Positions 1-5,547 of a DNA stretch of 12,461 nucleotides are shown here, one piece after another. Location: assembly GCA_964588985.1 (NCBI GenBank), contig CAZPQW010000041.1:1-12461 (forward strand). Reading direction: 5' to 3'. The first letter of the stretch is position 1. Every line of letters begins with the position of its first letter. Origin of the DNA: an uncultured Solirubrobacteraceae bacterium. GTDB taxonomy: Bacteria; Actinomycetota; Thermoleophilia; Solirubrobacterales; Solirubrobacteraceae. The notes under the pieces were generated by a model that saw only the letters and a list, made by a program, of their open reading frames with translations, ran no database searches and was not told the DNA's origin. A program made the position numbers and the translations under genes.

Positions 1-52
1 TGGTCCCGACGTTGACGTGCGGCTTGTCGCGCTCGAACTTCTCCTTCGCCAC
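1..52 (-). CDS. tuf: Elongation factor Tu, N-terminal fragment (runs off the window)
   Basis: The minus strand from GTG at 52 reads MAKEKFERDKPHVNVGT, the conserved EF-Tu N-terminus. An AGGAG Shine-Dalgarno lies at 63-67, and the gene is directly downstream of fusA. Confidence 0.97.
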   Translation of the reverse strand, partial: MAKEKFERDKPHVNVGT

Positions 53-195
53 TTTTTACTCGCTCCTGTATCGACTTGTATGTCCGCGCCTCTGTGAGGG
101 CGAACCTCAGAAATCTATCTAAATGTGGTGCTCGGTGACTGCTGCTTGTTTCGTACTACTTCAAGTTGGGACAACATCCGCCCTACTGCAGGCGT

Positions 196-2298
<2,103 letters not shown>

Positions 2299-2335
2299 GT
2301 GTGGATCCGGTGGTTGCGGTGGCTGCTTCAGGGCG

Positions 2336-2359
2336 AAAAAAATGGGCCCCTCGGGCCCA
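2336..2359 (-). terminator. Intrinsic terminator inside the fusA leader
   Basis: The minus strand reads TGGGCCC-GAG-GGGCCCA followed by TTTTTTT. It ends 37 nt before the fusA start. Confidence 0.85.
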
Positions 2360-2395
2360 CGCGCGCTACTGGTCTCGTTGGACCGGTTCGCGTCG

Positions 2396-2416
2396 TTATC
2401 TGCTCGAGGTCTCCAT
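2396..2416 (-). CDS. Putative leader peptide METSSR
   Basis: ATG GAG ACC TCG AGC AGA TAA, placed between the leader 5' hairpin and the terminator. No clear SD, and translation is unproven. Confidence 0.35.
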
Positions 2417-2477
2417 CGTGATTTGCCGACTCGCGGGAAGGCGTGCGCAAGCTGCGTCCACCCGCGACGCGAGGCCG

Positions 2478-2486
2478 ACTATAGCA
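2478..2486 (-). promoter_or_regulatory. Extended -10 promoter for fusA-tuf
   Basis: TG-C-TATAGT on the minus strand followed by GC-rich CGGCCTCG. No convincing -35. Confidence 0.7.
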
Positions 2487-4947: not shown

Positions 4948-5547
4948 ATGCTTTGGGTCCTCTCGCTCCAAGGATGGGGCGACATTGCTCAGTTTGTCCT
5001 TGCCCTTTCGGGCGTTGCTGCGCTTGGCGGAGCGTACGCGCAGATCCGAACCAGCCAAGCGACCGCCCGTCGAGCACGCGTCTACGACTATGCCGACCTC
5101 CTCAACGGGCTCGAGTTGCTGCGAGCTACGGCGAAGCACAGCGAGCAGTGGCCCAAGTGGACGGCCGCAGACTTCAAGGCGCTTCCGAACATTGAGCAGC
5201 TCGAATGGATGCGGCTTCCAAACATTGTTGAGGAGATAGCGGTCCTCTACAAGCGCGGCATGCTTGACCGCGATGTGGCAGCGGAGCTACTCGGCGTGTA
5301 CGTGGAGCGCCTTTGGAAATCCAGCGAGAAAGTGATCCGGGAACTGCGGGAGGCAGAACAGAGGCCGAGGATCTTTATCGACTGGGAGCAGATGCAGAGC
5401 GACACTTGGAAGAGAAGGGGCGTCGGCGCGCCCCTTGGTGTGGATACCTCAGCGCGTGGTCTAGCTGCACGTCCACCGTCACAGGTTTCCCGCTTGAGAT
5501 GGCTGCTCTCCGCCGAATACCGTCGCTCTATACGAGCGAGTCGTTAA
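4948..5547 (+). CDS. Membrane-anchored hypothetical protein, DUF4760-like
   Basis: 199 aa. An N-terminal TM helix (IAQFVLALSGVAALGGAYAQI) is followed by N..EEIA.LY..G.LD, LW, I.ELR and IF.DWE, a pattern I recognise as resembling DUF4760. Codons are less GC-biased than in neighbouring genes. Confidence 0.75.
   Translation: MLWVLSLQGWGDIAQFVLALSGVAALGGAYAQIRTSQATARRARVYDYADLLNGLELLRATAKHSEQWPKWTAADFKALPNIEQLEWMRLPNIVEEIAVLYKRGMLDRDVAAELLGVYVERLWKSSEKVIRELREAEQRPRIFIDWEQMQSDTWKRRGVGAPLGVDTSARGLAARPPSQVSRLRWLLSAEYRRSIRASR

Follow-up and report, generated by a model that had tools for sequence, protein, structure and literature searches.

In the trp, his, leu and pheST attenuators, a short translated leader is followed by a terminator and an antiterminator, and the position of the ribosome decides which fold is formed, a ribosome that reaches the stop codon favouring termination. 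These leaders carry runs of codons for the regulated amino acid, are 14 or more codons long and are built from four RNA segments. The synthesis of translation factors can likewise be set by a small step of translation, as with the RF2 frameshift (prfB), or with IF3 and the AUU start codon of infC.

The leader that precedes fusA, the gene of elongation factor EF-G, in the DNA analysed here is like these attenuators in having a short leader ORF (uORF) and a choice between terminator and antiterminator that would be set by the ribosome. Unlike them, it has no codon run, its frame is shorter than one ribosome footprint, and its target belongs to the translation apparatus. With prfB and infC it shares a small step that depends on the translation apparatus, the dependence on EF-G and EF-Tu being only proposed here; prfB and infC act on the translation of their own frame, whereas the fusA leader would act on transcription through a separate mini-frame.

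A similar architecture is found in the whiB7 5′ leader of mycobacteria, which also belong to the Actinomycetota and where a uORF, a Rho-independent terminator and a competing antiterminator occur together. According to the passages of PMC10274678 on this leader, efficient translation of the uORF leads to the terminator, and loss of its start codon raises expression. As far as those passages go, this logic, in which poor uORF translation gives read-through, is the same that we infer for the fusA leader (PMC10274678). The whiB7 uORF is longer and alanine-rich, its amino-acid content sets the signal, and its target is a transcription factor, whereas the fusA leader has a six-codon uORF with no amino-acid bias, an antiterminator strand inside the uORF, and EF-G as its target. 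The two were compared by architecture, and no sequence relation was seen.

Within the str operon itself, leaders with a terminator and a putative antiterminator have been described ahead of rpsL and, in streptococci, ahead of fusA (Naville and Gautheret, 2010; PMC2965389); in the parts of that paper that deal with them, no uORF is described, and binding of S7 is suggested as the signal. The fusA leader resembles these systems, as they are presented there, in its premature terminator and putative antiterminator, and differs from the rpsL and streptococcal rpsG-fusA leaders in having a uORF, in its taxonomic range and in the lack of any match to the Rfam rpsL families. An Rfam search of the window (the whole 12,461-nt stretch of DNA that was analysed) returned no matches at E ≤ 1, and 20 related loci gave only a chance-level match to SorX (21.2 bits, against a gathering score of 46.6); no covariance model of rpsL_psuedo, rpsL_ricks, the ribosomal-protein leaders or the riboswitches matched. 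Full-text literature searches found no uORF attenuator described for fusA, and elongation factors are not mentioned in PMC4833913. The remark of a first, sequence-only reading of this DNA, that no attenuator of such form was known for fusA, is in agreement with both the Rfam and the literature searches.

The fusA locus and the elements of its leader

The window comprises an entire contig of a draft genome of 3.41 Mb with 68% G+C. On the minus strand, the gene order is rpoC, an amidase gene, rpsL (6621-6226), rpsG (6222-5752), an insert of ~3.2 kb, fusA and the start of tuf. The insert contains two minus-strand genes, one for an MFS transporter (4531-3053) and one of the MarR family (~3020-2526), and a DUF4760 gene on the plus strand (4948-5547). 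The MFS and MarR genes, located between rpsG and the fusA leader, are likely an efflux-pump/regulator pair inside the str gene cluster; a MarR homologue lies ahead of the leader in 19 of 28 loci of the genus.

The fusA gene (196-2298, minus strand, ATG at 2298) encodes an EF-G of 700 aa, assigned by its Pfam domains, and is preceded by an intergenic region of 227 nt. No other full-length EF-G gene occurs in the genome, and the nearest named fusA loci are those of uncultured Solirubrobacterales (87-89% protein identity). A second EF-G-like gene, with ~40-44% identity over the full length, is present in most relatives (G001-G060); in the genome of the window, the same EF-G query gave only N-terminal matches to other GTPase genes.

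The 5′ end of tuf (GTG AKEKFERDKPHVNVGT...) occupies positions 1-51 of the minus strand, with a start at ~51, 144 nt past fusA, and runs off the end of the contig. The spacer between the two genes (52-195, minus strand) contains the block TTTAGATAGATTT, followed by a hairpin (GGTTCGCC...GGCG), an AGGAG and the GTG of tuf; neither block nor hairpin has a match in Rfam. The AT-rich, promoter-like block, at 111-123, is near-invariant in 20 loci of the genus and missing from two loci of another family, and the spacer is probably a separate promoter and 5′ UTR of tuf. Because tuf has this conserved promoter-like block of its own, the leader would control fusA first of all. The sequence-only reading had assigned to the leader the control of fusA-tuf, which should be read as control of fusA plus read-through into tuf.

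The leader opens with an extended -10 element of the TGnTAnnnT type (TGCTATAGT, 2478-2486, minus strand as are all the elements that follow), which was read directly from the sequence and from which the position of the transcription start is deduced. A consensus promoter scan missed this element, and the only site that it flagged (9/12) lies inside fusA. Next come a 5′ stem-loop, P1 (2430-2473, -22.4 kcal/mol), and an A-rich unpaired linker (2417-2429, consensus nnAAAnCAAnATGGAG), in which there is no Shine-Dalgarno sequence ahead of the uORF. The uORF itself (2396-2416) reads ATG GAG ACC TCG AGC AGA TAA (METSSR*), and a predicted hairpin, P2 (2359-2396), begins at the last base of its stop codon. 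The intrinsic terminator (2336-2359), detected by a consensus terminator scan, is composed of GGGCCC (2358-2353), a GAG loop, GGGCCC (2349-2344), an A and seven T residues (2342-2336), its hairpin having a predicted energy of -12.9 kcal/mol. From the end of the U7 tract to the fusA ATG there are 37 nt (2299-2335) of unconserved sequence with no TA dinucleotide, and therefore no -10 box follows the terminator. An intrinsic terminator is thus interposed between uORF and gene with no promoter after it, as in an attenuator.

The competing fold is formed by the strand CCTCGAGC (2402-2409), which covers codons 3-5 of the uORF, and the strand GCCCGAGG (2349-2356), which spans the loop of the terminator, with part of its 5′ arm on one side and the first base of its 3′ arm on the other. 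The two strands pair at 7/8 positions, and inside this helix ACGCG (2393-2389) is complementary to CGCGT (2363-2359), with which it forms a stem. Promoter, 5′ hairpin, uORF, U7 terminator, the 7/8 pairing with its nested stem and the absence of a -10-like box ahead of the fusA ATG had all been proposed in the sequence-only reading, and each was found where it had been placed.

It should be noted that, from this single sequence alone, the leader is not beyond chance, and its reality rests on comparison. Terminator-like sites in 5 kb number 2, against 2.4 ± 1.7 in shuffles, and neither the fold energy of the leader (z = +0.62) nor, taken alone, that of P1 (z = -0.79) is significant. Within the 3.41-Mb genome, TGCTATAGT occurs once, and a simple screen gave 16 sites with a hairpin and T≥6, among which that of the fusA leader is the only one with a short ORF 40-70 nt upstream. 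Canonical terminators of the hairpin and T≥6 kind are very rare in this genome, and the one in the fusA leader is among the strongest.

Distribution of the leader and of its reading frame

The units of the leader were the same in the first 30 of 30 fusA loci of relatives. A covariance model (R1), built on 29 sequences and with uORF, P2 and terminator as its core, matched 139 of 151 genomes of the genus, usually once per genome; this count takes in the unpublished genomes G065 and G174, each of them with a match, and becomes 137 of 149 without them. Among high-quality genomes of the genus the figure is 58 of 59, and the genome of the window has one match. The unit is single-copy and always lies directly 5′ of fusA. 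The extended -10 element is TGCTATAGT or TGCTATATT in all 28 loci of the genus that reach that far, and in other genera 19 of 21 loci have TGCTAnnnT or TGTTAnnnT.

Outside the genus, the leader was present in 4/4 further genera of the same family. Of 50 loci drawn from six families of Solirubrobacterales, 47 had a uORF of 6-7 codons, located 44-70 nt ahead of the T-run. Among the remaining three, the frame of L056 has nine codons, because TAC stands in place of the stop and is followed by an in-frame TAA. L049 and L054, both from a single genus of another family, lack a uORF; these two loci consist of the conserved -10 of the promoter, a small hairpin and a hairpin-U8, with fusA 59-130 nt further on. 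The leader was found in none of 36 loci of other orders of the class (seven families), in most of which rpsG visibly ends shortly ahead of fusA, and among 80 named fusA loci it was present in the five closest only, three of which are genomes already counted. A single match among 75 more distant fusA loci (L063-L137), in L073, was taken as a probable false positive, its T-run being located 231 nt before fusA.

On the loci compared, then, the leader is an order-wide feature of Solirubrobacterales, with mutually exclusive folds ahead of fusA as its conserved architecture. The sequence-only reading had linked the leader to the detachment of fusA from rpsL-rpsG, a link that is contradicted by its presence in six families and by L056, where rpsG ends ~40 nt ahead of the same promoter and leader. 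Since in L056 rpsG adjoins promoter and leader, the leader goes back to the ancestor of the order and did not arise to mend the insertion of the MFS and MarR genes.

The conservation as a block of a ~135-nt unit from promoter to terminator would also suit a stand-alone small RNA gene, with fusA transcribed from elsewhere, and the retention of only promoter and terminator in L049 and L054 could be read in the same way. In such a case the downstream gene should have a promoter of its own, whereas the 37-nt spacer lacks any TA, and hence a -10 for fusA. The spacer, moreover, ranges from 36 to 113 nt within the genus and from 27 to 170 nt when all 50 loci are taken together, is as short as 27-30 nt in some relatives, and has sequences that are unrelated between relatives. 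Transcripts from upstream would also have to pass the terminator, and the unit is single-copy and invariably adjacent to fusA. We therefore regard a separate small RNA gene as most improbable. Four soil metatranscriptomes (the runs came from soil only and shared 0.14-0.19 of the sequence words) gave cover of the fusA coding region only and nothing usable on the leader, so they are not informative about its expression.

The uORF is maintained as a reading frame. An intact frame of 6-7 codons is present in 132 of 133 loci of the genus, in line with the check on start and stop that the sequence-only reading had called for, and the sole broken frame (L244) has a 4-nt insertion and runs through 10 sense codons to a TGA inside P2. 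In 125 distinct sequences of the genus, the start is ATG in 124 and GTG in one, the stop is TAG in 67 and TAA in 58, never TGA, and there are six sense codons in 117 and seven in eight, so that the length changes by whole codons. GTG or TTG also replaces ATG in L033, L052 and L060. The leader ORF thus has the conserved start, stop and frame of ribosome-mediated attenuators.

The last codon is more constrained than the rest of the frame. The base before the stop is A in 125/125 sequences of the genus, where the last codon is AGA (86), ACA (25), AAA (9), CGA (3), ATA (1) or GGA (1); among 24 leaders from other genera, 20 stop at TAG and four at TAA, and 23 have a last codon with A as its third base. 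In the genome as a whole, 62% of stops are TGA, A is the final base of 4% of codons, and AGA accounts for 1.2% of Arg codons. The peptide varies freely, with 37 variants in the genus (e.g. METSSR, MKTLST, MEAETG, MTRISTT) in which only the A-ending last codon is constant, and no regulatory codons for a specific amino acid were found among the uORF peptides. Judging from these alignments, it is start, stop, length and frame that are conserved, not the peptide. As a guess, slow decoding of a rare A-ending codon and RF1-dependent release may lie behind the bias in last codon and stop. The third base of the stop codon also forms a pair (AU, GU) with a U that lies at the bottom of P2.

This pattern bears on the idea of a switch that binds a protein or another ligand (e.g. 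S7, or a nucleotide), where the apparent uORF would be an untranslated, conserved single-stranded motif. The lack of a Shine-Dalgarno sequence, the conservation at nucleotide level around the A-TA-R block and the P1 loop, and the S7 binding thought to act on rpsL and fusA leaders of other bacteria, as presented in the relevant parts of PMC2965389, would be compatible with such a switch. An untranslated motif, on the other hand, does not account for starts that are swapped only for GTG or TTG, stops that are swapped only between TAA and TAG, and length changes of whole codons; the interior of the motif varies freely save for covarying pairs, and no Rfam family matches. The sequence-only reading had mentioned S7 or another protein as a possible ligand, to which nothing in the analysis points, and we consider a ligand-binding switch very unlikely.

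Covariation of the two folds

In an alignment of 29 sequences, 93.1% of the cells of the antiterminator helix (2409-2402/2356-2349) are paired, and three pairs have changed on both sides, in 11 cells; none of 500 shuffles was as good, and sliding the helix by 1-3 columns reduced pairing to at most 66%. The same helix was then scored on 96 held-out distinct sequences, which had been aligned to a model without it. Pairing was 91.4%, none of 500 shuffles reached the score, and slid versions paired at 69.6% or less. Cells with a double change numbered 24, against 7.2 ± 2.2 in shuffles, where the double changes trace to few events in roughly 3-5 lineages and relatedness inflates the shuffle control. 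The antiterminator proposed in the sequence-only reading thus covaries in both sets. The states observed are CCTCG/CGAGG, CCCTG/CAGGG (in 14/14 CAGGG loops), CTTCG/CGAAG and CCTTG/CAAGG, and in three sequences the A·C mismatch is replaced by G-C. The helix is weakened in some lineages of the genus: 13 sequences of the METSIR type retain 5/8 pairs, and those of the METLTR and METTIR types 4-6.

In the other families, the 5′ strand of the antiterminator begins 6-13 nt past the uORF stop and pairs with the 5′ arm of the terminator, with matching changes next to the loop (GCCCGAA/UUCGGGC, GCCCGGA/UCCGGGC, GCCCUGU/ACAGGGC). As the strand there lies outside the uORF, the geometry, and perhaps the logic, is not uniform. 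Common to all is an antiterminator strand that a ribosome at the end of the uORF would cover or touch with its leading edge. An antiterminator that excludes the terminator is therefore found within reach of a ribosome on the uORF, as an attenuator requires.

The remaining helices are conserved to different degrees. The stem of the terminator is paired at 99.0% in the 96 sequences, nine of which share one GC-to-AU double change. In the same set, the outer stem of P2 is paired at 91.0% and the inner one at 73.6%, with four pairs changed on both sides. From a MAFFT alignment, RNAalifold recovered only the outer P2 pairs and the terminator, and the alignment of P1 is too poor for pair counts; over 127 distinct sequences of the genus, P1 has a mean z of -1.41, with 83% of the values below 0, which supports it as a class, and changes in its stem, from CGCGGG/CCCGCG to CACGGG/CCCGUG or GUGGUGGG/CCCACCAC, can be followed by eye. 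In a number of loci (e.g. L011, L022, L024, L026, L028 and L030), the apical loop of P1 has a motif, GTGCGAGCA, which by eye resembles the uORF stretch CGAGCA and which is not present in the P1 of the window. The minimum free energy (MFE) fold also contains a helix that joins the start codon to the 3′ flank of the terminator; this helix was rejected, since it had no double changes and 422-500 of 500 shuffles were as good.

At the level of sequence, we regard as established the elements of the leader and how they are conserved, the maintenance of its reading frame, and covariation in both folds.

Direction of control and meaning of the leader

Thermodynamic, not kinetic, models were used for folding. 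The naked leader of the window has an MFE of -53.4 kcal/mol in a fold without the terminator, and of -51.4 kcal/mol in the best fold with it, which answers the energy comparison called for in the sequence-only reading. Among 121 distinct leaders of the genus folded naked, the MFE structure contains the full terminator in 55 and nothing of it in 62, the mean difference between the two folds being 1.5 kcal/mol. While the 3′ arm is yet to be made, the uORF is paired with the 5′ arm and loop of the terminator in 67 of the 121. With a mask of ribosome size, the full terminator is formed in 105/121 when the mask is placed at the stop codon, and in 78/121 when it is placed at the start codon. A ribosome footprint covers ~28-30 nt. 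Because the uORF (21 nt) is shorter than this, any ribosome on the uORF would, in this genus, hide the antiterminator strand.

Geometry, modelled folding and the likeness to whiB7 thus favour a direction in which an occupied uORF would give termination and a free one read-through; as the sequence-only reading had warned, this direction cannot be read from the sequence itself. We conclude that the fusA leader is probably a ribosome-dependent, uORF-coupled transcription attenuator with this sign. In the mechanism for which we infer start site, uORF translation, terminator efficiency, direction of control and physiological signal, a dedicated extended -10 promoter would start a leader of ~135 nt, comprising P1, the A-rich linker, the uORF, P2 and the hairpin-U7 terminator. 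This RNA would have two nearly isoenergetic folds, in which the terminator forms, or codons 3-5 of the uORF pair with its 5′ arm and loop, this latter pairing stacking on P2 to give one long antiterminator. A ribosome anywhere on the uORF, from initiation to stop, would mask the antiterminator strand, and transcription would end at ~2336. The rare last codon ending in A and the TAA or TAG stop would probably prolong the time that a ribosome spends there. If the uORF is free when the polymerase makes the 5′ arm of the terminator, the antiterminator would form first and transcription would read through into fusA. The output of EF-G (and in part, by read-through, that of EF-Tu) would then increase when new leaders are poorly loaded with ribosomes, i.e. 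when translation capacity or the pool of free ribosomes is small, and would decrease when leaders are promptly loaded.

This sign has a weak point. If occupation gives the off state, a shortage of EF-G or EF-Tu that slows a ribosome on the uORF would reduce transcription of fusA, and the result would therefore be positive feedback, not homeostasis. With the opposite sign, the leader would behave as a "speedometer" of elongation, in which a ribosome waiting at the rare last codon (AGA) would free the antiterminator and give read-through, while decoding by EF-Tu and translocation by EF-G would put the ribosome on the stop codon, where it blocks the antiterminator and causes termination; this would be a direct negative feedback on EF-G and EF-Tu. 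Such a device would make sense of the A-ending last codon, kept for any amino acid in 125/125 sequences of the genus and 23/24 other leaders against 4% genome-wide, and of the antiterminator of the other families, whose start 6-13 nt past the stop lies close to where the front of a ribosome on the stop codon would be, as judged from the general footprint. In this genus, though, the antiterminator strand is inside the uORF, and it is covered whether the ribosome stands at codon 5, at codon 6 or at the stop; a shift of one codon (3 nt) can barely be resolved by footprint geometry. The opposite sign, which is the main rival, is thus a better fit to the geometry of the other families than to that of this genus, and we consider it unlikely. 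Taken by itself, the idea that the six-codon frame measures the speed of the elongation factors it controls, by means of its A-ending codon and RF1-read stop, is slightly less doubtful, and we offer it tentatively. The position and dwell of a single ribosome, as set by EF-Tu delivery, EF-G translocation and EF-G/RRF recycling, would in that case select the fold.

The balance between elongation factors and ribosomes in bacteria is usually explained by operon linkage with ribosomal proteins and by ppGpp. In Solirubrobacterales, a whole order appears to have given fusA its own promoter and a putative switch read by the ribosome. If the attenuator proposed here is real, it would be a minimal sensor of translation capacity, where one ribosome on 21 nt feeds back on the translation apparatus, and it would widen the range of uORF attenuation, known from amino-acid and resistance genes, to include core translation factors. 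If the leader did measure elongation speed, it would be the first case of EF-G/EF-Tu autoregulation by a test translation event that is read at the level of transcription. Natural variants are abundant, with 125 distinct sequences in one genus and alternative antiterminator solutions between families; being small, single-copy and rich in variants, the element is therefore a good model for the evolution of attenuators, and one that is easily tested.
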